From Escherichia phage vB_EcoM_G50, in the sequence record NC_054917.1: a stretch of DNA of 64,000 nt, one strand, 5' to 3'. How positions within the stretch are numbered: the first letter of the stretch is position 1; every line of letters begins with the position of its first letter. The position numbers were made by a program, and so were the translations under genes. Below, one piece after another: positions 55,286 to 64,000 of the stretch. The notes under the pieces are model-generated. The model worked only from the letters and a program-made list of their open reading frames with translations, did no database searches and had not been told where the DNA came from.

Positions 55286-57343
55286 CTACATTTTGAACTT
55301 TTTAGACATTCCGTTGATGTTAACCAAAGAAGCCAAGATTTGAGAAACTTCGTTTTCCTCTTCTTTTGATTCTTCTACAAGGAATTGATTAAATCCAGCC
55401 ATTGGACGAACTTCACCAGTTTCCATCAGATGATCGCCATCATATACCGATTCTTCTAATTGTTCAGAAGGAGGAACGATTGTGCCTTCGATTAAATACT
55501 TGTTATAAGCAGTTTCTTTCATCATGTACGTGCTCACTTTATTAATCTTCAGCAAAATTCCACGCGGTAAAATAACTTCAGCTTCTGATGGAAATCCTGA
55601 TAAATGACCTGGAACGATAACTTTGATTCGCTCAGCTCCTTTTATTACCATACCTACGCTAGTTTCAGCATCTTCATTAGCATATGCGGAATGACTACCC
55701 GTATGCATTAAATCTTCAGCATCAACTGAACCTTCTCCTTCACCAGAAAATACTGCACTGGAATCATCTAGGGCCATATAGTTTTTACCATACTCACCGA
55801 AGATATTTGGTTTAAGCGATGTGGATACGAAGTTCTTGAAATAGAACATTTTATTTTCAATATTATGACGTAAAGTTTTAAAGGTAACTTCTTGTCCACG
55901 GTAAAGTGTAGTTCCTGGAGGAAGAACTGATCCTTTGGCAAAGGCAGAATCCATTGTCTCGATGTGTTTAATAGCTCGTTCCATGTATTCTTCACGGGTA
56001 GAATCTGGTTTACCCAAGAGGAACGAGTTCATTTCAACATATGAATCTGCACAATAATCTTCAATTACATCGGACTCAGCCTGAGTTAATCCTTTTGGGG
56101 GTACTTCAGTACTTGCATATTCATACGCTTGAGAAGCAGACTCATTAATCAATTTATAAATGCCATTCATGACAAATTGAATAATAGCTACCTTTTCATC
56201 TGGCGTGGCTTTAGAACCTTTAACTAAATCATTGACAATTTTCTTAATAACATCAAAGCTATTAGAAATATTAATGTCAGCGAGATCGCTTAAAATTTTA
56301 TCAGTTTTATAATCAAAAAATTCTTTATTCTTTAAATATTCCTGAGAACCTTGATATGTTATATCGCTCTGTAACTTGATAGATGGATCACGTAAACGTG
56401 CATGAGCCAATGCAATATGATTTCGGAAGCTTTCTAATTCATAATCGCTAGATTTAAAACGAGAAGCACTTCTCATACCACCGATAGCTCCTTTGCTGAA
56501 GTTTGAACCAACCTGAATAACGCCAGAGTTCATTGGTCCTTCTGCTTTATATACCGGAACTTTAGATTCAAACTCTTGATATTTCTTAGCAGCGAAGCTA
56601 TCACCCTGAAGTGAAGCATCGACAGTAGAATATTGAGCTTGTGCTGCTAATCGACGACTAATTTTAGTTTTCTGAATAACAGCTTGATCCGTACGCTTAT
56701 CATTTTCTAAAGCAATAGAAGCAGCAACAGCAACAGCTTTAGGAACAGCATTACCTGTTTTAACGTCTACATAAACATCACCAACCTTTGATTCAACCTT
56801 TGTGAATAACTCAGTTGAAATAGGAGGTACACCTGGAATGTCTTCTAAATTGGCATTTTTACGGTAAACCATAATATATGTGTACTTTTTATCGTAATCC
56901 CAGATTTCCTTTAAAAGAACATATCGACCTGCTCCTTTAGTACGCACTAAACGATCGGCAATAACTTGCATTTGACGAGCTGCACCGTTTGTTTTACTCT
57001 TTAATACGCGGAATAGGCATGCGTCAATTTTGTACTGTTTCATTGTCTGAAGAGCAGTATCAAAAACCGCATTAATGACACCAATTGGATTTCCACCTAA
57101 GTTTTTAAGTTTAACTAATGATAGTTTCTCATTAACGCCTATCATTACGATATGCATCATTTTATCGCCTGGCTTAACGTTTTTATTTGTATCACCGCCA
57201 GAGGTGTATGTACAAAATCTAAATCCAGGAAGCACACTTTCTTCACCGGCTTGAATAGCAAAAATTTGAGGTATTTTATGCTTAGGATTTAAGTTAACAA
57301 CCGGCGCCGAAGCGCCGTCAAATAATTCTGTAATAAGTTCCAT
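55286..57343 (-). CDS. Alt-family ADP-ribosyltransferase paralog (685 aa)
   Basis: N-terminus MELITELFDGASAPVVNLNPKHKIPQIF... parallels the upstream Alt; ART-like motifs FVSTSL (S-T-S) and EAEVILPRG (E-x-E). Confidence 0.75.
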   Translation of the reverse strand: MELITELFDGASAPVVNLNPKHKIPQIFAIQAGEESVLPGFRFCTYTSGGDTNKNVKPGDKMMHIVMIGVNEKLSLVKLKNLGGNPIGVINAVFDTALQTMKQYKIDACLFRVLKSKTNGAARQMQVIADRLVRTKGAGRYVLLKEIWDYDKKYTYIMVYRKNANLEDIPGVPPISTELFTKVESKVGDVYVDVKTGNAVPKAVAVAASIALENDKRTDQAVIQKTKISRRLAAQAQYSTVDASLQGDSFAAKKYQEFESKVPVYKAEGPMNSGVIQVGSNFSKGAIGGMRSASRFKSSDYELESFRNHIALAHARLRDPSIKLQSDITYQGSQEYLKNKEFFDYKTDKILSDLADINISNSFDVIKKIVNDLVKGSKATPDEKVAIIQFVMNGIYKLINESASQAYEYASTEVPPKGLTQAESDVIEDYCADSYVEMNSFLLGKPDSTREEYMERAIKHIETMDSAFAKGSVLPPGTTLYRGQEVTFKTLRHNIENKMFYFKNFVSTSLKPNIFGEYGKNYMALDDSSAVFSGEGEGSVDAEDLMHTGSHSAYANEDAETSVGMVIKGAERIKVIVPGHLSGFPSEAEVILPRGILLKINKVSTYMMKETAYNKYLIEGTIVPPSEQLEESVYDGDHLMETGEVRPMAGFNQFLVEESKEEENEVSQILASLVNINGMSKKFKM

Positions 57344-57346
57344 GAT

Positions 57347-59443
57347 TTATCCTTGAACGAACTTGTAAGGCATGTTTGTAATATCTATGCAAGACGCAAT
57401 AATTCCAAGAGATGATTCTACTTTCTGTTTAACATTTGATGAAACAAACGATGCAAAGTCAACTCTGTCTTCTATTTCAATATCATCTGTCATTGCAACT
57501 ACTTCACCGGTTTCCATTAGACGGTCACCGTCATAAATGACTGATTCGGTGAGCTCTTCTGTAGTCATAACTTCAGCTTGAATGAGTTTTGTATTATTAG
57601 ATGTTGTTCCGTCATTATTAGAAGCATCAGTTATTTTATTAACTTTGACCATCAATCCGCGTGGTAGAATAACTTCAGCTTCTGTTGCTATTCCGAGACT
57701 TCCTGGATATACAACATTAACTTTATGAGCTCCATCAATTGCCCATCCTATTTGAACTTTAACGTATTCAGGATTTTCTTTATACGCTCTTATTTCGTTT
57801 GGATTAATAGTTATTCCTTCTTCATTTTTATCAACTGTTAATTCATTACGAGCTTCTGGTTCTAAAAGACCAATACCAGCATGCGTAATTCCAAAACGTC
57901 CAAAAATGATAGGAGTTAAAGAAGTAGATACAAAATTTCTGAAATAGAACACTTTATTTTTAACTAGCGCTTCGTATATAGGAGCAGTCATACTTTGAGC
58001 ACGATAAACTGTAATGCCTTCTGGTATACGGTCACCATTTTCAAAAGCTGAATCTAAATTATTTATCGCAGATTCAATTTCTTTTTCACTCATTACATCA
58101 TATCGTTCTGGATTGTAGCGGCCTAAAAGAAGATTATTGATGTCAGTATATCCTGATCCACAATACTCTCTAATGCCGCGCTTTTGTGATGGAGTATATT
58201 TAGAACCATCACGGGCAATAGTAATATCAATCATTGGACCTGCACCAATTCCAGAAAAGCTATAAATCATTCGTTTGAGGAATTTAGTTTTTGCTGCGTT
58301 CCAGGAATTTTTAGTTATTTCTTCCCAGACTTCATCTGGCTGTCCTTTACGGGTTTTATTATGTTTATCAAGCCAATTATCTTTATATTCTTCAAAGAAT
58401 TGATTAACAGCTGCTGCGTATTTCTCTAAACATTTTATTGAAGTGGTTGGTTCATTTTTAATCGCATTAAGAATTACATCTTTAATTTTTTCAGAAACTT
58501 CATTAACCTCACTTTTTGAAAAGAATTTATAGTCATAGTGAAGTTCATCTGCGGTTCCTTCGGCAATGATTTTTGCTGCCTTAGTTTTAGAAGCTAATGA
58601 ATTAATTCCAAGCTTCATTTCTTCTGCTTCGGGAATTAAAGGAGCTGTAGCAGGTTTATTGAAATTAGCTGCGGTAGATTCATATTTCTGGAATAATTCA
58701 CTTTCAAATCTAGAAGATTCCAATGACTGACTTTGCGCAATTGCTCTACGGGAAATTTTAACTTTAACGATTACAGCTTGGTCAGAACGTTTATCGTTTT
58801 CTTGCGCAATAGATGCCGCAATTGCCTCATTTTTAGTTACTTGAGCTCCAGTATCTTTATTGATATAAACATCGCCGACTTTCGATTCAACTTTAGTAAA
58901 GAGCTCGGTACTAATTTCCGGAACTCCTGGAATGTCTTCTAGTGATACATTTTTGCGATGTATAAGAATATATGCATACTTTTTATCGTAATCCCAGAGT
59001 TCCTTAAGAAGGACGTATCTGCCACCTGAACGACTGCGGATAAGTCTATCAGCAATAACTTGAATTTGTCGAGCTTGACCAGCAGTTTTAGACTTAAGAA
59101 TACGAAGCATACAGGCATCAATTTTATACTGACGCATCGTTTGCATCGCAACAGTAAAAACTGAATTGATGTAATTAATTGGGCTTGGACCGAGACCTTT
59201 CAATTTAGCAATTGAACCTTTAGCAGTTAATGTAAAAGGAACAATGTGCATCATTTTATCGCCCATCTTTAGATCACGGTTAGTATCACCTCCAGATGTA
59301 TAGGTACATAAACGAAAGCCTGGTTGTTCAATTGCGTCATCAACATGAACTGAAAAAATTTGCGGTATTTTCTTCTTTGGATTTAAGTTTGTAATCGGAA
59401 GAGTAGTATCTTCGTCAAATAATTCTGTAATGAGTTCCATCAT
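57347..59443 (-). CDS. alt: NAD-protein ADP-ribosyltransferase Alt (head-packaged, injected)
   Basis: 698 aa; MMELITELFDEDTTLPITNLNPKKKIPQIFSVHVDD... matches recalled T4 Alt; motifs R, FVSTSL, EAEVILPRG. Confidence 0.85.
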   Translation of the reverse strand: MMELITELFDEDTTLPITNLNPKKKIPQIFSVHVDDAIEQPGFRLCTYTSGGDTNRDLKMGDKMMHIVPFTLTAKGSIAKLKGLGPSPINYINSVFTVAMQTMRQYKIDACMLRILKSKTAGQARQIQVIADRLIRSRSGGRYVLLKELWDYDKKYAYILIHRKNVSLEDIPGVPEISTELFTKVESKVGDVYINKDTGAQVTKNEAIAASIAQENDKRSDQAVIVKVKISRRAIAQSQSLESSRFESELFQKYESTAANFNKPATAPLIPEAEEMKLGINSLASKTKAAKIIAEGTADELHYDYKFFSKSEVNEVSEKIKDVILNAIKNEPTTSIKCLEKYAAAVNQFFEEYKDNWLDKHNKTRKGQPDEVWEEITKNSWNAAKTKFLKRMIYSFSGIGAGPMIDITIARDGSKYTPSQKRGIREYCGSGYTDINNLLLGRYNPERYDVMSEKEIESAINNLDSAFENGDRIPEGITVYRAQSMTAPIYEALVKNKVFYFRNFVSTSLTPIIFGRFGITHAGIGLLEPEARNELTVDKNEEGITINPNEIRAYKENPEYVKVQIGWAIDGAHKVNVVYPGSLGIATEAEVILPRGLMVKVNKITDASNNDGTTSNNTKLIQAEVMTTEELTESVIYDGDRLMETGEVVAMTDDIEIEDRVDFASFVSSNVKQKVESSLGIIASCIDITNMPYKFVQG

Positions 59444-59463
59444 ATCCTCTCTAGTGTTTATTC

Positions 59464-59471
59464 TATTTATA
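59464..59471 (-). promoter_or_regulatory. T4 late promoter TATAAATA (alt)
   Basis: Plus-strand tatttata about 20 nt upstream of alt start. Confidence 0.5.
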
Positions 59472-59492
59472 AAATTAAAGGCCCGAAGGCCT

Positions 59493-59681
59493 TTAATAAT
59501 CTAATGGTAAGAGAGTACGATATATTTCAAACTTTGGACCTTTTTCATAGGCATCAAATGTTTCTGTGAATTTATTATAAGCATATGCATCTATAAATTC
59601 AATCATAATTTGTGATACAGAAGTAGAAACATCTCCACCTTCTTTTTGAGCAACGACAATTGTTTCTAAGTAAGCTTTCAT
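59493..59681 (-). CDS. hypothetical protein (62 aa)
   Basis: ORF with stop/start overlap with ligase gene. Confidence 0.45.
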   Translation of the reverse strand: MKAYLETIVVAQKEGGDVSTSVSQIMIEFIDAYAYNKFTETFDAYEKGPKFEIYRTLLPLDY

Positions 59682-61141
59682 AGACCAGTTACCTCATGAA
59701 AATCACCAAATACATCCTCGAATGTATTAGCTTTAGTTTTATCTTCACGTAAACGAATCGCAATCGGAAGAAATAATTTAACGTAATCAGTGCGGCCATC
59801 AGATTTTAACCAACCGTTGCATTCGCACTCTAGAATTTTTCCAATATAATAATTTTGGTTTTCCATAATGCGAGTACGGTCAAGTTCATGCGATTTTACA
59901 CCGGCTTTATCTTTTAAGCCTGAACCTGCATTTACTTTAATTTTTCCACACTCTGATTCAAGAATAAATCCACCAGCTTTAGTAGGGTCTTTACGGTGAG
60001 GATAAATTCCTACAATTTTTAAATCAACATCAATTACTTCTTTAAATTTATAGAGATTTTTTGAACGAGCATTTTCCCACAATCCGTCGGTATTTTTGAG
60101 AATAATACCTTCAAAACCTTGGTCAATATATTTTTTATAAATTACCTTAGCTTCATCTAGGTTATTTACTACTTGGTTTTCAATTAAAATTACTTTATCA
60201 TATCCTGATGTCATTTGTTCTAGTTTAGAAAAACGTACATCATATTTTAAACGAAACGCCGGAAGACCGTATATTTCTACCAACGGGACATAATCCCAGA
60301 CCTGAAACTTCATGCATTTGGCTTCTTTTTCGGAAATGGTTCCTTTTAAGGATTTATTAGCGATTCCATTAGAAGTAGTACGAGATTCCGCTACTTCGGC
60401 GAATTCTTTAGCTTTACTAATTTCAGGATAAGCATCAAAAAGAAAATCTAGGCCTTCTGGTTCCTTTTTAACTTGCTCATGGTATACCAATTCGCCATCA
60501 ATTAACACACCTTCTGGATGAATCTGGCGGGCTTCAGCAGTCATTTTGATTAATTCTTCCTTAAGAAGATCTAATCCTAGATATTCATTACCAGCTCGTG
60601 ATAAAAGACGAACATCATCTAATTCATCACCTCGAACTTCAGCAAAACACCGAGATCCATCTGCTTTTAACTGTGCAAAAGCTGGAAACTTGATATTCTT
60701 ACTAATGCCTTTTTCATCATAAGAACTTGCCAGCATTTGAGGTTGTTCAGGAATTAAACCTGGCCAAACTTTGTTTGCAATAGATACTGAAGCACCGCAT
60801 TCAAGGTCTCGCATCATCACTCGACGCAAAACTTCAACATCATCCTTTTTACCATCGGTGATATATCCAGTCAATTCCTCAATTGCAGCATTTCCAGTCA
60901 ATTTCCGAGTAGCTAACGTGAATTCAATGAAGTCAAGCATATCGGTAATAGTCAGCATTCCAAAACTCTGGGTAGCAATACCAGGTTTAGGCCATTTCTT
61001 TATATAATACTGTAACCCACGAGAATAAGTCAGACGATATACCCGTTTAAGCAATTCATTATCTTTATTCTTTTCAAGAATTGCTTGCTTCTGCTTAGTT
61101 GATCCAATAGATGCTATTTCATTCAGAATTTTAAGAATCAT
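59678..61141 (-). CDS. 30: ATP-dependent DNA ligase gp30
   Basis: 487 aa as in T4; adenylation motif KADGSR. Confidence 0.95.
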   Translation of the reverse strand: MILKILNEIASIGSTKQKQAILEKNKDNELLKRVYRLTYSRGLQYYIKKWPKPGIATQSFGMLTITDMLDFIEFTLATRKLTGNAAIEELTGYITDGKKDDVEVLRRVMMRDLECGASVSIANKVWPGLIPEQPQMLASSYDEKGISKNIKFPAFAQLKADGSRCFAEVRGDELDDVRLLSRAGNEYLGLDLLKEELIKMTAEARQIHPEGVLIDGELVYHEQVKKEPEGLDFLFDAYPEISKAKEFAEVAESRTTSNGIANKSLKGTISEKEAKCMKFQVWDYVPLVEIYGLPAFRLKYDVRFSKLEQMTSGYDKVILIENQVVNNLDEAKVIYKKYIDQGFEGIILKNTDGLWENARSKNLYKFKEVIDVDLKIVGIYPHRKDPTKAGGFILESECGKIKVNAGSGLKDKAGVKSHELDRTRIMENQNYYIGKILECECNGWLKSDGRTDYVKLFLPIAIRLREDKTKANTFEDVFGDFHEVTGL

Positions 61142-61407
61142 TGTTCATCCTTCAGAGTTTGATTTACAGCTCTATTATAAATCAATTCATCATTAAGCTC
61201 AGGCAAAGACTTATGATATGTAGTTCTAACTTTATTTCCTTGCATCCAGTGCTTGACATAAATGAAACCTTGCTCTACACATTTTTTAAAAATTCGTTCG
61301 TCTTTTTGAGCTCGGAATTCTGGATTGCATCTAAAAAATTGATTTACGTGACCGTAATCACGTGTAGTATTACCTTCATTTTCATAAATAGTGTGAACGA
61401 CAAACAT
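61138..61407 (-). CDS. hypothetical protein, 30.1-like (89 aa)
   Basis: ORF immediately upstream of ligase, overlapping termini. Confidence 0.55.
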   Translation of the reverse strand: MFVVHTIYENEGNTTRDYGHVNQFFRCNPEFRAQKDERIFKKCVEQGFIYVKHWMQGNKVRTTYHKSLPELNDELIYNRAVNQTLKDEQ

Positions 61408-62270
61408 TAGAATGCTCCTTGGAAAATATTATCACCACTAGTAAATCTATTAAAATACCCTGCATCGCCAGGCTTGGTATAACTCCACGTATGGAATGGA
61501 TTCATATGATATGGGTGTGTATAATATGGATTATATGGATGTGTATAATATGGATTATACGGATTAAATCCAGGAGTTCTCCAGGTAGTGTTCCAACGAA
61601 AAGAATCGTTTTTAACCATCTTCTCAATTACATCTTTTATAGCTTTTTCACTATCAAAACTTTCTTTATTTTCCTTTGGTGAAAAAAGCTTATTTTCTAC
61701 ATCATTCCATGTATAAACTCGCTGAGCGGTTTTTGGAATATTGTCACGCTCTCCTCGCGCCATCCAATAAACAGGAACATTTAATATTTCACTCGCATGA
61801 TCGCAATGGTGAGCGAGATCGTCAATGTAACAAATTACGTTATATTTCTCTTTTGCCTTTTTGAACAACTCTTCTTTTGAAGAATCATGACCACACATCA
61901 TTACTTCTGAGAAGGCACCAGGAAAAAGAGCATTCAAATTAAATTGACGATTCAACAGAGCGTCAATAGAATCACCCAATGCTGTAACAGCTACAAAATT
62001 ATAATCTTCTTTTAATTTGTTAATTACACACAGGGCATCTTTATACGGAGACAAATAACGAATAAAATCTGAACGATTGTATTTTTCAATTAACTTGACG
62101 CCAAGTTCTTCATCACAATTAAAGAGTTTACCTGGAGAAATAAATTTCTCATCTTGGATCATTTTTAAAATATGTTCTAACGGAAGATTATATTTCTGAG
62201 CAAAATAAGGAAGGCCTGATTGCCAGCTTAAACATACTCCATCAATATCAGTTAAAATAGTAGGCTTCAT
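61407..62270 (-). CDS. HAD-like hydrolase with Tyr/Pro/His-rich C-terminal repeats, 30.2-like
   Basis: 287 aa; N-terminal HAD motif I LTDIDGV; C-terminus NPYNPYYTHPYNPYYTHPYHMNPF. Confidence 0.6.
   Translation of the reverse strand: MKPTILTDIDGVCLSWQSGLPYFAQKYNLPLEHILKMIQDEKFISPGKLFNCDEELGVKLIEKYNRSDFIRYLSPYKDALCVINKLKEDYNFVAVTALGDSIDALLNRQFNLNALFPGAFSEVMMCGHDSSKEELFKKAKEKYNVICYIDDLAHHCDHASEILNVPVYWMARGERDNIPKTAQRVYTWNDVENKLFSPKENKESFDSEKAIKDVIEKMVKNDSFRWNTTWRTPGFNPYNPYYTHPYNPYYTHPYHMNPFHTWSYTKPGDAGYFNRFTSGDNIFQGAF
61511..61558 (-). repeat. 24-bp tandem repeat (2 copies) in C-terminal coding region
   Basis: atgggtgtgtataatatggattat / atggatgtgtataatatggattat, one mismatch; encodes NPYYTHPY units. 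Confidence 0.85.
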
Positions 62271-62731
62271 AGAGAGTCTCTTAATAGATTTAACACATCA
62301 ATAAATTCAGCTTCGGTTAGTATTGTATCATCTTTTGTTAGACCACTAGCCATGCTGTGCTTCAAAACTTTTCCTTTCGAGGCTTGTAATGCATCGCGAA
62401 AGCCCTTGTTTTGGAACGCTGCTTCAAAATATGCATTTGTGTATAATTCTTTCCATGCTTCGGAATATCTTGAAAACGGAGTTCCAAGCCAGAACAACGT
62501 GCCACGGTCCTGAGCTCTTGCATAAGACCTTCCAGCTTGTTGGGCGGCAAGCCCGGATAACCCAAATATACGACGCTGTTGTTCAACATTTTTCACCTTG
62601 CATCCTTGGAGGAATCCTTCGAGACCTCCAAATTGGATACCATCCATAACAAAAGGCCATTGGGCGAAATTACTTAATGCACATGATGGCCATCTAAAAT
62701 TGCTTCTAATCTCTAACTCAGACATTTTCAA
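62267..62731 (-). CDS. NADAR (YbiA/DUF1768)-like protein, 30.3-like
   Basis: 154 aa; segment LSNFAQWPFVMDG resembles recalled E. coli YbiA motif LSNFAAWPIKVDG. Confidence 0.65.
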   Translation of the reverse strand: MKMSELEIRSNFRWPSCALSNFAQWPFVMDGIQFGGLEGFLQGCKVKNVEQQRRIFGLSGLAAQQAGRSYARAQDRGTLFWLGTPFSRYSEAWKELYTNAYFEAAFQNKGFRDALQASKGKVLKHSMASGLTKDDTILTEAEFIDVLNLLRDSL

Positions 62732-62924
62732 TACTTATAATTTCAACATCAGCCCAATGACCATAGCAAGGAAGACGAAATTCAACTGGCCAGTTAGGGT
62801 CCTTTTCTAATATAATAGACTGAACTTGTGGCTCTTCATGTTCATCGGTATACGGACCTTTATACGTTACTTTATATGTGACCTTAATGTACTGAATTCC
62901 AAAAATCTTATTAATTATATTCAT
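62718..62924 (-). CDS. hypothetical protein (68 aa)
   Basis: ORF with overlapping termini in the 30.x array. Confidence 0.45.
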   Translation of the reverse strand: MNIINKIFGIQYIKVTYKVTYKGPYTDEHEEPQVQSIILEKDPNWPVEFRLPCYGHWADVEIISIENV

Positions 62925-63118
62925 ATTAATTCCTTTAATCCATAGATAGGAGATAATTCATCACCCATACGAAGGTCTTCATTTCCATCTACCCAGGAAA
63001 CAATATAAGCCTCTTTTATTTGAATACCACTCCATTTAAATGGAGGTAGAACCTTAGAAATTAATCCAGGTATACCAACTCCCTTTAATTCAACAGTTTG
63101 ACCTAAAAAGAATTTCAT
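62921..63118 (-). CDS. hypothetical protein (65 aa)
   Basis: ORF with overlapping termini in the 30.x array. Confidence 0.45.
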   Translation of the reverse strand: MKFFLGQTVELKGVGIPGLISKVLPPFKWSGIQIKEAYIVSWVDGNEDLRMGDELSPIYGLKELI

Positions 63119-63405
63119 TAAAACCTCATCTGAAAACCGTGCGATTTAACATTACCGCCGCCAATATCAGAAATATTAATTTCGCGCGCAATTGAAGGGT
63201 CAATGTCAATTTCACGATTGAGTTTAGTAATAGCTAGAGTATCACGCCCATTTACAGTACGGAACTCTAAAGGGCAGACTACATTAACGTAGTTTTTAAT
63301 TGATTCACTGGTAGGTTGCAAATGAGCAGGAAGGTCTTTAGGTGCCTTAGAGAAAACCACTTCACAGAAATTTTTGCGGGTATCAAAATAAGTAGTCATA
63401 AACAT
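63118..63405 (-). CDS. hypothetical protein (95 aa)
   Basis: ORF in the 30.x array. Confidence 0.5.
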   Translation of the reverse strand: MFMTTYFDTRKNFCEVVFSKAPKDLPAHLQPTSESIKNYVNVVCPLEFRTVNGRDTLAITKLNREIDIDPSIAREINISDIGGGNVKSHGFQMRF

Positions 63406-63446
63406 AGTATTTTCCTCAGTAAGGGGCCGAAGCCCCTCATTTTATT

Positions 63447-63812
63447 TTAAATATCAAATTCGTTAAGAACTACATCAAAGATCGCTTCAAGATGCTCAGG
63501 TTTAGCTCTGTTACTCAGAATATGACGAATCCAAGTTTTAACCAGAAGCTTACGATTGACGCCATTCCAGCAAGGATGAGTACCTAAATCGCGTTGACGG
63601 AAATCATCATCTAATGCGATTTTAAAAGAAGAACCTTCTTTCGTGATTGAAACCGTGATGCCATTTTCAAATCGCATATAAACGTAGTTAGGAGTCATAT
63701 ACTGTTCAATTTCGCATACTGATCCATTTTGATGTTTCCAAAGGCAGATAGTATCAATAGAACCTGCAATACCATTAGAAACATATTTACGTTCAAAGTT
63801 GATGTAGTTCAT
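63447..63812 (-). CDS. hypothetical protein (121 aa)
   Basis: ORF preceded by hairpin GGGGCCGAAGCCCC at 63423-63436. Confidence 0.5.
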   Translation of the reverse strand: MNYINFERKYVSNGIAGSIDTICLWKHQNGSVCEIEQYMTPNYVYMRFENGITVSITKEGSSFKIALDDDFRQRDLGTHPCWNGVNRKLLVKTWIRHILSNRAKPEHLEAIFDVVLNEFDI

Positions 63813-63880
63813 TTTTATTCTCCGAGATGTTTAATTGCGGTACAGGTATATAATATCATATCCTGTACCAAAGTAAACAA

Positions 63881-64000
63881 TTATTTTACTACTTTCCAAT
63901 GTTGCATGTCAAGTTTACCAACTTTTTTCATCTTCTCAATTAAGCGTTCGGCACGTTGGCGGGCTGTAACATAATACCATTCACCCAATTCATTTTGTTC
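63881..64000 (-). CDS. partial CDS (C-terminal 39 codons of an upstream gene)
   Basis: Open frame from window edge to TAA at 63881-63883 (...EQNELGEWYYVTARQRAERLIEKMKKVGKLDMQHWKVVK); hairpin GGTACAGG...CCTGTACC downstream. Confidence 0.4.
   Translation of the reverse strand, partial: EQNELGEWYYVTARQRAERLIEKMKKVGKLDMQHWKVVK

Follow-up and report, generated by a model that had tools for sequence, protein, structure and literature searches.

The closest described counterparts of gene 30.3 are the T4 protein of the same name, the DarG1 antitoxins and E. coli YbiA. T4 gp30.3 is AdfN, a guanine-specific DNA ADP-ribosylglycohydrolase that is both necessary and sufficient against DarTG1 (PMC11257639, PMC11125620, HIDEN-SEQ bioRxiv 10.1101/2025.11.20.689424). 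Deletion of adfN makes T2 and T4 sensitive to DarTG1 by about 4 logs, and ectopic AdfN alone rescues RB69, whose own, inactive allele has lost the C-terminal helix; AdfN is dead when it carries E36A or K43A, and the purified enzyme strips ADP-ribose (ADPr) from DNA (PMC11257639). Hydrolysis of guanine-ADPr by gp30.3 in vitro has also been reported (PMC11125620), as has the clearing of guanine-ADPr from phage DNA by AdfN during infection. In the absence of infection AdfN(T4) does not detoxify DarT1, which the authors say might reflect a need for a further phage factor (PMC11257639). Transposon data from T4 give 30.3 a log2FC of -7.25 under DarTG1 (HIDEN-SEQ, bioRxiv 10.1101/2025.11.20.689424), and in the same data T4 can do without adfN on K-12 that lacks DarTG1. 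Earlier work had already classed the protein as a phage NADAR and noted that it is co-located with ADP-ribosyltransferases (ARTs) in T4-like phages (Iyer et al., PMC9503650). Phage NADARs carry a signature His in the last strand (PMC11125620, PMC11543638), and roles have been assigned to the catalytic Glu and Lys of NADARs through E88 and K95 of E. coli C7 NADAR (PMC11543638; see also PMC11257639). Gene 30.2, the neighbour of 30.3, is one of some 100 genes of T4 that have yet to be given a function (PMC11257639); neither it nor 30.3 is mentioned by Petrov et al. in their review of T4-related genomes, and we found no mention of gp30.2 by name in the literature searched.

The window, a 64,000-nucleotide stretch of Escherichia phage vB_EcoM_G50 (NC_054917.1), is that of a T4-like coliphage, with 97–99% nucleotide identity to many Tequatrovirus genomes, and the region studied is the 30.4-30.3-30.2-30.1-30 gene string of such phages. 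All five genes are on the minus strand and follow one another head to tail, the stop codon of one overlapping the start of the next. Gene 30.4 (62718..62924; 68 aa, unknown function; phrog_2042, E=8e-34) has its stop codon in an 8-nt overlap with the start of adfN, and the two genes are therefore probably translationally coupled, judging from the arrangement of the sequence. The adfN/30.2 junction is a tightly packed ATGA overlap, and gene 30.1 (DUF3045; 61138..61407; PF11243, E=6e-63) separates 30.2 from the ligase, its start overlapping the 30.2 stop in the sequence TAATG. Gene 30 encodes the ATP-dependent DNA ligase (59678..61141; PF01068, E=1e-31). Two alt paralogues follow on the same strand, coding for ADP-ribosyltransferases of 698 aa (57347..59443; PF03496, E=2e-37) and 685 aa (55286..57343; PF03496, E=3e-20) that are 40% identical to each other. 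As the initial annotation had stated, both of the genes of interest are within about 3 kb of the Alt genes, the distances from their 3' ends being about 2.0 kb for 30.2 and about 2.8 kb for 30.3. A scan of positions 59400–64000 found 22 promoter-like sites versus 17.5 +/- 5.2 in shuffled sequence, which is no excess, and on the minus strand from 30.7 to the ligase it found nothing resembling a terminator; the scan is compatible with co-transcription and is no evidence for it.

The open reading frame at 62267..62731 (minus strand) had been singled out for a YbiA-like motif, and this motif, LSNFAQWPFVMDG, is present at residues 17–29 of the 152-aa AdfN (nt 62639–62677). It is not a chance motif, because the reading frame matches Pfam PF08010 (Phage_30_3) at E=7e-69 and 230 bits, the gathering cut-off being 36 bits. 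Over its full length and without gaps the protein is identical to T4 gp30.3 at 148 of 152 positions (97%), and the four substitutions (T82/V, E89/P, F104/I and M125/I, this phage/T4) are all non-catalytic and either conservative or peripheral. The TTG at 62731 is merely the first possible start of the mechanical reading frame. We place the true start of adfN at the ATG at 62725 (gene 62267..62725, minus strand), since the T4 annotation of 152 aa agrees, the gap-free alignment begins at this ATG, and the published numbering of E36 and K43 is reproduced; the two extra upstream codons, TTG-AAA (62726..62731, minus strand), are probably not translated. Catalytic E36 is encoded at nt 62618–62620, K43 at 62597–62599 and the phage-type H123 at 62357–62359. 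Across the family alignment of 46 homologues E36 and H123 are invariant and K43 is conserved at 90% or more. Searches of PDB sequences with the single sequences of AdfN and gp30.2 gave nothing useful; the AdfN family profile had E. coli YbiA as its best PDB sequence (E=0.005, over the SNF...E..Q..K motif), with the E-x-x-x-Q-x-x-K segment aligned to SEHYFQAQKF of YbiA. The 152-aa frame runs without a frameshift and its C-terminal helix is intact, unlike that of RB69.

The AlphaFold model of AdfN (pLDDT 92.5) leads to the same family. Its best match in the PDB is YbiA (2b3w; E=1.6e-4, TM 0.69), the others being 8bat (G. lovleyi NADAR) and 8bau with nothing else above noise, such that the model matches solely YbiA, G. 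lovleyi NADAR and P. nicotianae NADAR. H123 sits where the last strand (120–122) ends, and the helix at 138–151 is present. By profile and model AdfN thus belongs to the NADAR superfamily of enzymes, which bears out the initial annotation.

Comparison with the characterized NADARs places AdfN closest to its T4 namesake, with which it shares the position between 30.4 and 30.2, E36, K43, His123 and the intact C-terminal helix. It resembles DarG1 (BC4488 subfamily; e.g. G. lovleyi NADAR, 8bat) in fold and in the Glu/Lys pair, and DarG1 catalyses the same reaction as T4 AdfN, taking ADP-ribose off guanine in DNA. However, AdfN differs from DarG1 in all three features that mark a DarG1-type antitoxin: it lacks the N-terminal extension, has His123 and not Asp in the last strand, and has 30.4 and 30.2 as neighbours rather than a DarT1 toxin; in addition, T4 AdfN is unable to replace DarG1 in uninfected cells. 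YbiA, an N-glycosidase of riboflavin intermediates, is the best structural match, and no other PDB sequence is matched significantly by the family profile; the two proteins share an SNFxxxP...E(G/H)(F/Y)xQxxK motif, but they are only 18% identical, the Glu typical of the YbiA subfamily is His in AdfN, and their biological roles differ. From the 97% identity to the T4 protein, for which the mechanism has been demonstrated by experiment, and the intact catalytic and C-terminal residues, we infer that AdfN of this phage would act as follows. Host DarT1 would ADP-ribosylate guanines of the phage DNA and block its replication; AdfN, through a NADAR active site of E36, K43 and a His123 that replaces the Glu/Asp of cellular NADARs, would hydrolyse the N-glycosidic ADP-ribose-guanine bond to restore replicable DNA. 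AdfN would then supply the phage with the activity of the DarG1 antitoxin, as an orphan copy. The proposal that this gene is a candidate anti-DarTG factor is in agreement with what has already been shown experimentally for the 97%-identical T4 protein (PMC11257639, PMC11125620).

The adjacent 287-aa reading frame (61407..62270, minus strand), which begins MKPTILTDIDGV, was noted at the outset for an HAD-type DxDGV motif, and the observation extends to all four HAD motifs and to the fold. Motif I is D8-x-D10-G-V (D8-I-D10-G-V; nt 62241–62249), motif II is T96, motif III is K132 and motif IV is D150-D151; among 43 aligned family members D8, D10, G11 and K132 are invariant, and T96, D150 and D151 are conserved at 90% or more. 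The model is a confident HAD structure, with a Rossmannoid core and a large helical C1 cap at approximately residues 16–86, and the phosphatase core spans approximately residues 1–200 (61671..62270, minus strand). Together, motifs and model predict gp30.2 to be a true HAD-superfamily phosphatase, C1-capped and with its catalytic motifs intact; it would be a Mg2+-dependent phosphomonoesterase with Asp8 as the nucleophile and Asp10 as the general acid/base. The helical cap points to a small-molecule substrate, and from the fold and motifs this is most likely a nucleoside monophosphate. More than 1,400 sequenced T4-like phages carry the gene.

The gp30.2 protein itself has no Pfam or NCBIfam match even at E<=10; 9 of the 43 family members match Pfam NT5C (PF06941), with a best E of 1.2e-4 that is similar to that for the generic PF00702, and the best PDB sequence for the family profile is mouse cdN, at E=0.056. 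gp30.2 thus weakly resembles 5'(3')-deoxyribonucleotidases. Its best profile and Foldseek matches are cdN/mdN and the bacterial NT5C-like 3bwv; like them it has a HAD-IA fold, a helical cap and a DxDGV motif, and the stretch after motif I can be aligned (W-Q-S-G-L in gp30.2, F-E-S-G-L in mouse cdN). However, identities to these proteins are 15–22%, the Pfam threshold is unreached, and gp30.2 has a long disordered tail. T5 Dmp, a deoxynucleoside-5'-monophosphatase, is an early phage enzyme whose motif I reads DxDGT; it has no Pfam match, and we rejected it as a relative, hhalign covering motif I alone (35 columns, probability 1.8%).

The C-terminal tail of gp30.2, delimited by pLDDT and the family alignment, comprises approximately residues 201–287 and the stop codon (61407..61670, minus strand). 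It has one predicted helix (207–220) followed by a disordered Asn/Pro/Tyr/His-rich segment, with pLDDT below 50 at residues 250–287. Within it lies a 24-nt tandem repeat of 2.3 copies (61509..61564; TRF score 98, 93% matches) that encodes NPYYTHPY repeats, and T4 gp30.2 is 10 aa shorter at this repeat, seen as an alignment gap. Among homologues the tail varies in length from 0 to about 150 aa, and in many it is absent or unalignable.

The initial annotation had further suggested a possible ADP-ribose processing neighbourhood. If Alt, AdfN and gp30.2 formed one such pathway, gp30.2 might for example dephosphorylate a product of the released ADP-ribose or serve as a T-even-specific helper of AdfN in vivo. 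The co-orientation and packing of the genes and the ATGA overlap of adfN and 30.2 would fit this, as would the expression of NADAR genes with ARTs in T4-like phages (Iyer et al., PMC9503650) and the inactivity of AdfN(T4) against DarT1 in uninfected cells, for which an extra phage factor is allowed by the authors (PMC11257639). However, whereas 30.3 insertions are lost under DarTG1, insertions in 30.2 (71 sites, log2FC -0.12, p=0.61) and in alt (178 sites, log2FC -0.01) are neutral, and those in 30.4 are mildly depleted (log2FC -1.79, padj 0.014; all T4 transposon data). On K-12, with RnlAB or DarTG1, and in M9 compared with LB, 30.2 insertions are without phenotype (T4 transposon data), and because they are neutral under DarTG1 we rejected gp30.2 as a helper that would confine the action of AdfN to T-even infection. 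RB69 is rescued by AdfN alone, and purified AdfN works alone in vitro (PMC11257639, PMC11125620). Linkage was counted at 73 related loci, with AdfN sought within 6 kb upstream. AdfN is found within this distance in 36 and abuts gp30.2 in 21, the latter being a point in favour of a single pathway, but half of the loci have no AdfN inside 6 kb of gp30.2, and in sampled Klebsiella T4-like phages AdfN homologues are at coordinates distant from those of gp30.2 in related phages. The ligase, in contrast, is directly downstream of gp30.2 in 68 of the 73, in phages of Escherichia, Klebsiella, Acinetobacter, Aeromonas and Vibrio. Moreover, ADP-ribose offers no phosphomonoester to an HAD enzyme unless Nudix cleavage occurs first. 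We consider a common pathway very unlikely and do not retain the notion of an ADP-ribose processing neighbourhood; gp30.2 is independent of AdfN, and its evolutionary tie is to DNA ligase and not to the ADP-ribose enzymes.

The ligase linkage in these phages, together with the fact that even 35%-identical gp30.2 homologues have genes of replication and recombination around them (gp59, UvsX and a PD-(D/E)XK nuclease), could be taken to mean that gp30.2 is a DNA-end 3'-phosphatase that readies nicks for the adjacent ligase, like the HAD domain of polynucleotide kinase-phosphatase. We regard this as unlikely, since HAD C1 caps typically enclose small substrates and polynucleotide phosphatases are cap-less, whereas gp30.2 has a large modelled cap; there is no PNKP-type structure among its top Foldseek matches, T4 already has a 3'-phosphatase in PseT, and the ligase adjacency may be plain synteny of a conservative genome backbone. 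Somewhat less doubtful, although still improbable, is that gp30.2 is no mere housekeeping leftover but a phosphatase of nucleotides that matters under certain conditions, in the conflict between phage and host or in DNA metabolism; it could, for example, destroy a defence-made or harmful nucleotide, or trim a pool of nucleotides on which ligation or replication depends. On this reading its fast-evolving, repeat-bearing disordered tail could be a targeting or interaction module. For AdfN, the main substrate might instead be soluble ADP-ribose derivatives or, as for YbiA, riboflavin-pathway intermediates, the DarTG1 phenotype being a side activity. Iyer et al. (PMC9503650) have made the case that low-molecular-weight ADPr signals are what phage NADARs mostly act on; YbiA is the closest solved structure, and in uninfected cells AdfN gives no rescue from DarT1 (PMC11257639, PMC11125620). 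Yet the 4-log defect of the adfN deletion is seen on DarTG1 hosts only, adfN being dispensable on K-12 without DarTG1, catalytic mutants fail and the purified enzyme removes DNA ADPr (PMC11257639), and the YbiA-subfamily Glu is replaced by His; such a soluble substrate seems to us the most improbable of these proposals. We are highly confident that the observations are best explained jointly by 30.3 being adfN, a putative anti-DarT1 enzyme, and 30.2 encoding a predicted HAD phosphomonoesterase that is independent of AdfN and tied to the ligase.

The region as a whole is ordinary and already explained, and the anti-DarT reading of gene 30.3 is right but already known, having been published in 2024–2025. 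Gene 30.2 is narrowed to a C1-capped HAD phosphatase, predicted from its motifs to be catalytically intact; it is ligase-linked and, from the T4 data, dispensable for DarTG1 counter-defence. The value that remains in the observation is modest. An intact adfN in another T4-like phage predicts DarTG1 resistance of that phage, and no more. The adfN gene is a textbook-in-the-making example of a phage orphan antitoxin-like enzyme that undoes DarTG1 DNA ADP-ribosylation.

The 30.3 reading frame (62267..62731, minus strand), which had been flagged for a motif resembling that of E. coli YbiA, was confirmed and includes LSNFAQWPFVMDG. As a start, the TTG at 62731 is just the earliest candidate codon; initiation from the ATG at 62725 yields a 152-aa protein, as annotated in T4 and matching published residue numbers. 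The product matches Pfam PF08010 (Phage_30_3; E=7e-69) and is identical to T4 gp30.3 at 148 of 152 residues in a gap-free alignment. When a family profile of 46 diverse homologues was used, YbiA was the top PDB sequence (E=0.005), with the alignment spanning exactly the flagged motif SNFAxxP...E(G/H)(F/Y)xQxxK. An AlphaFold model from the 46-homologue alignment is confident (pLDDT 92.5) and matches YbiA (TM 0.69) and the NADARs of Geobacter lovleyi (8bat) and Phytophthora (8bau), with only noise beyond these in the PDB. E36 and H123 are invariant among the 46 homologues, and K43 is kept in at least 90%. At the last-strand position YbiA has Glu and DarT-linked NADARs have Asp, whereas phage NADARs including AdfN have His, which is a phage NADAR signature (PMC11543638; PMC11125620). 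Sequence profile, predicted fold and catalytic residues thus confirm the proposed membership of the NADAR superfamily, and gene 30.3 is adfN.

The initial annotation also read this gene as a candidate anti-DarT factor, correctly so from published data on the orthologous T4 gene, for which the role is already established and not new. Johannesman, Carlson and LeRoux mapped T-even resistance to the DarTG1 toxin-antitoxin defence to 30.3 and renamed it adfN (PMC11257639). Deletion from T4 or T2 lowers plating on DarTG1 cells by about four logs, E36A and K43A proteins are inactive, and purified AdfN acting alone in vitro strips ADP-ribose from DarT1-modified DNA; RB69, which is sensitive owing to a frameshift deleting the last 15 residues of AdfN, is rescued by ectopic AdfN supplied alone in trans (PMC11257639). 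In an independent study gp30.3 hydrolysed guanine-ADPr in vitro (PMC11125620), and 30.3 insertions were lost in a T4 transposon screen under DarTG1 (log2FC -7.25, adjusted p about 0; bioRxiv 10.1101/2025.11.20.689424). The window's adfN is full length and retains the C-terminal helix; from its 97% identity to T4 AdfN, the straightforward prediction is that the protein would be active and the phage DarTG1-resistant.

In the portion of the DarTG1 transposon sheet consulted, 30.4 is the sole other significant gene (log2FC -1.79, padj 0.014), with 30.5 at -3.0 and non-significant. The stop of 30.4 (62718-62924, minus strand) overlaps the adfN start, and the depletion of 30.4 is most simply explained by polarity on adfN; a helper role for 30.4 is also conceivable.

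Public databases contain AdfN proteins of T4-like phages that are truncated or fused (homologue records P0107, P0113, P0115, P0116, P0117 and P0156), with truncated proteins of 109 aa in phage SV76 and 91 aa in UGJNEcP4, and some variants joined to gp30.7-like or other domains; such phages, like RB69, may have no working AdfN and be sensitive to DarTG1. The T4-annotated internal ORF 30.3' was found in another frame inside adfN (62362-62589, minus strand; 75 aa). It is 84% identical to its T4 copy, and the overlapping adfN frame 97%; nucleotide differences here are mostly silent for adfN and amino-acid-changing for 30.3', which speaks against 30.3' being a conserved coding sequence.

The adjoining 287-aa ORF (61407..62270, minus strand), noted earlier for a HAD-type motif, is present and begins MKPTILTDIDGV. 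Its product, gp30.2, is 90% identical to T4 gp30.2 and a member of phrog_420, and has no match among Pfam and NCBIfam models; the 1,443 phage records with a homologue cover T4-like phages of Escherichia, Klebsiella, Aeromonas, Acinetobacter, Vibrio and further hosts. When 43 diverse members are aligned, each of the four HAD motifs is seen to be conserved (D8-x-D10-G and K132, both invariant, T96, and D150-D151); an Asp at the nucleophile+2 position distinguishes phosphatases and phosphomutases from dehalogenases. In the gp30.2 model, residues 1-190 are predicted with confidence (pLDDT >90) and those beyond ~228 are disordered, and Foldseek returned 118 HAD matches at E<=0.001, headed by deoxyribonucleotidase-like 3bwv, YfnB, and cytosolic and mitochondrial 5'(3')-deoxyribonucleotidases. 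Mouse cdN is the top PDB sequence for the family profile (E=0.056, aligned from motif I through the cap), and Pfam NT5C gives sub-threshold matches in 9 of the 43 members (best E=1e-4, about equal to the generic HAD model). On the motifs, the model and the structural comparison, gp30.2 is therefore classed as a C1-capped HAD phosphatase, and the HAD assignment stands. T5 Dmp nucleotidase was rejected as a specific relative.

Residues ~201-287 of gp30.2 comprise one predicted helix followed by a disordered Asn/Pro/Tyr/His-rich segment. This tail contains NPYYTHPY units encoded by a 24-nt tandem repeat (61509-61564; 93% matches over 2.3 copies), which makes gp30.2 10 aa longer than its T4 counterpart at that site. 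Across the family the tail is unalignable and ranges from absent to ~150 aa, a variation in length that suggests rapid slippage-driven evolution.

Several hundred genomes of Tequatrovirus (T4-like) phages of Escherichia, Shigella and Yersinia share 97-99% DNA identity with the 2 kb around adfN and 30.2. Between 55.3 kb and 63.8 kb every gene is on the minus strand and in T4 order: two alt paralogues, alt.1, 30 (ATP-dependent DNA ligase), 30.1 (DUF3045), 30.2, 30.3, and 30.4 to 30.7. Stop and start codons overlap at 30.4/30.3 (8 nt), 30.3/30.2 (ATGA) and 30.2/30.1 (TAATG), and no terminator-like site was found on the minus strand between 30.7 and the ligase gene; the 30.7-to-30 string is therefore most likely co-transcribed. 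The top sigma-70-like site of the scanned region (63883-63912, minus strand; TTGACA, 18 nt, TAAAAT; 11/12) lies ~70 nt upstream of the 30.7 start and could be an early promoter of this string; the total of sites in the scan was not above the shuffled-sequence level.

The alt paralogues are both full length (685 aa, 55286-57343; 698 aa, 57347-59443; minus strand), match PF03496 and share 40% identity, and they end 4.1 kb and 2.0 kb, respectively, from the 30.2/adfN pair. T4, in contrast, has a single alt with short remnants (alt.-1, alt.-2) of an old duplication. Two alt copies are also present in several related loci.

That NADAR and ART genes lie together in T4-like phages was noted before by Iyer et al. 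(PMC9503650); the initial annotation proposed that adfN, 30.2 and alt form an ADP-ribose processing neighbourhood. Such a functional unit is not supported by gene order, AdfN positions, T4 transposon data or the sufficiency of AdfN. Profile searches around gp30.2 homologues at 80 IMG/VR loci, 73 with enough flank, placed ligase immediately downstream and co-oriented in 68 of the 73 and an alt gene within 6 kb in 55, with AdfN within 6 kb upstream in only 36 and abutting gp30.2 in only 21. AdfN homologues occur in 1,509 phage records, about as many as gp30.2, and in sampled Klebsiella T4-like phages their coordinates differ from those that gp30.2 has in related phages, as compared across different genomes. 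Distant gp30.2 homologues neighbour gp59, UvsX, PhoH and a PD-(D/E)XK nuclease. The most distant (35-41% identity) are without a neighbouring ligase: that at locus L074 (5986-6603) lies near PhoH, the PD-(D/E)XK nuclease, a patatin-like phospholipase and gp59, and that at L071 (6001-6645) near UvsX. In T4, 30.2 is non-essential (insertions at 72 of 72 sites), and under DarTG1 both 30.2 (log2FC -0.12, p=0.61) and alt (log2FC -0.01) are unaffected; 30.2 is also neutral with RnlAB and in M9 vs LB (bioRxiv 10.1101/2025.11.20.689424, supplementary file 7). The neutral 30.2 insertions under DarTG1 contradict the idea that gp30.2 is a T-even factor enabling AdfN to act, during infection only.

The conserved pairing with ligase would fit an action of gp30.2 on DNA ends, but the large cap in its model and the absence of PNKP-like structures among the top Foldseek matches make this improbable. 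For gp30.2 as a C1-capped HAD phosphatase, a nucleoside monophosphate is the most likely guess at a substrate rather than a result. We regard the finding as ordinary.
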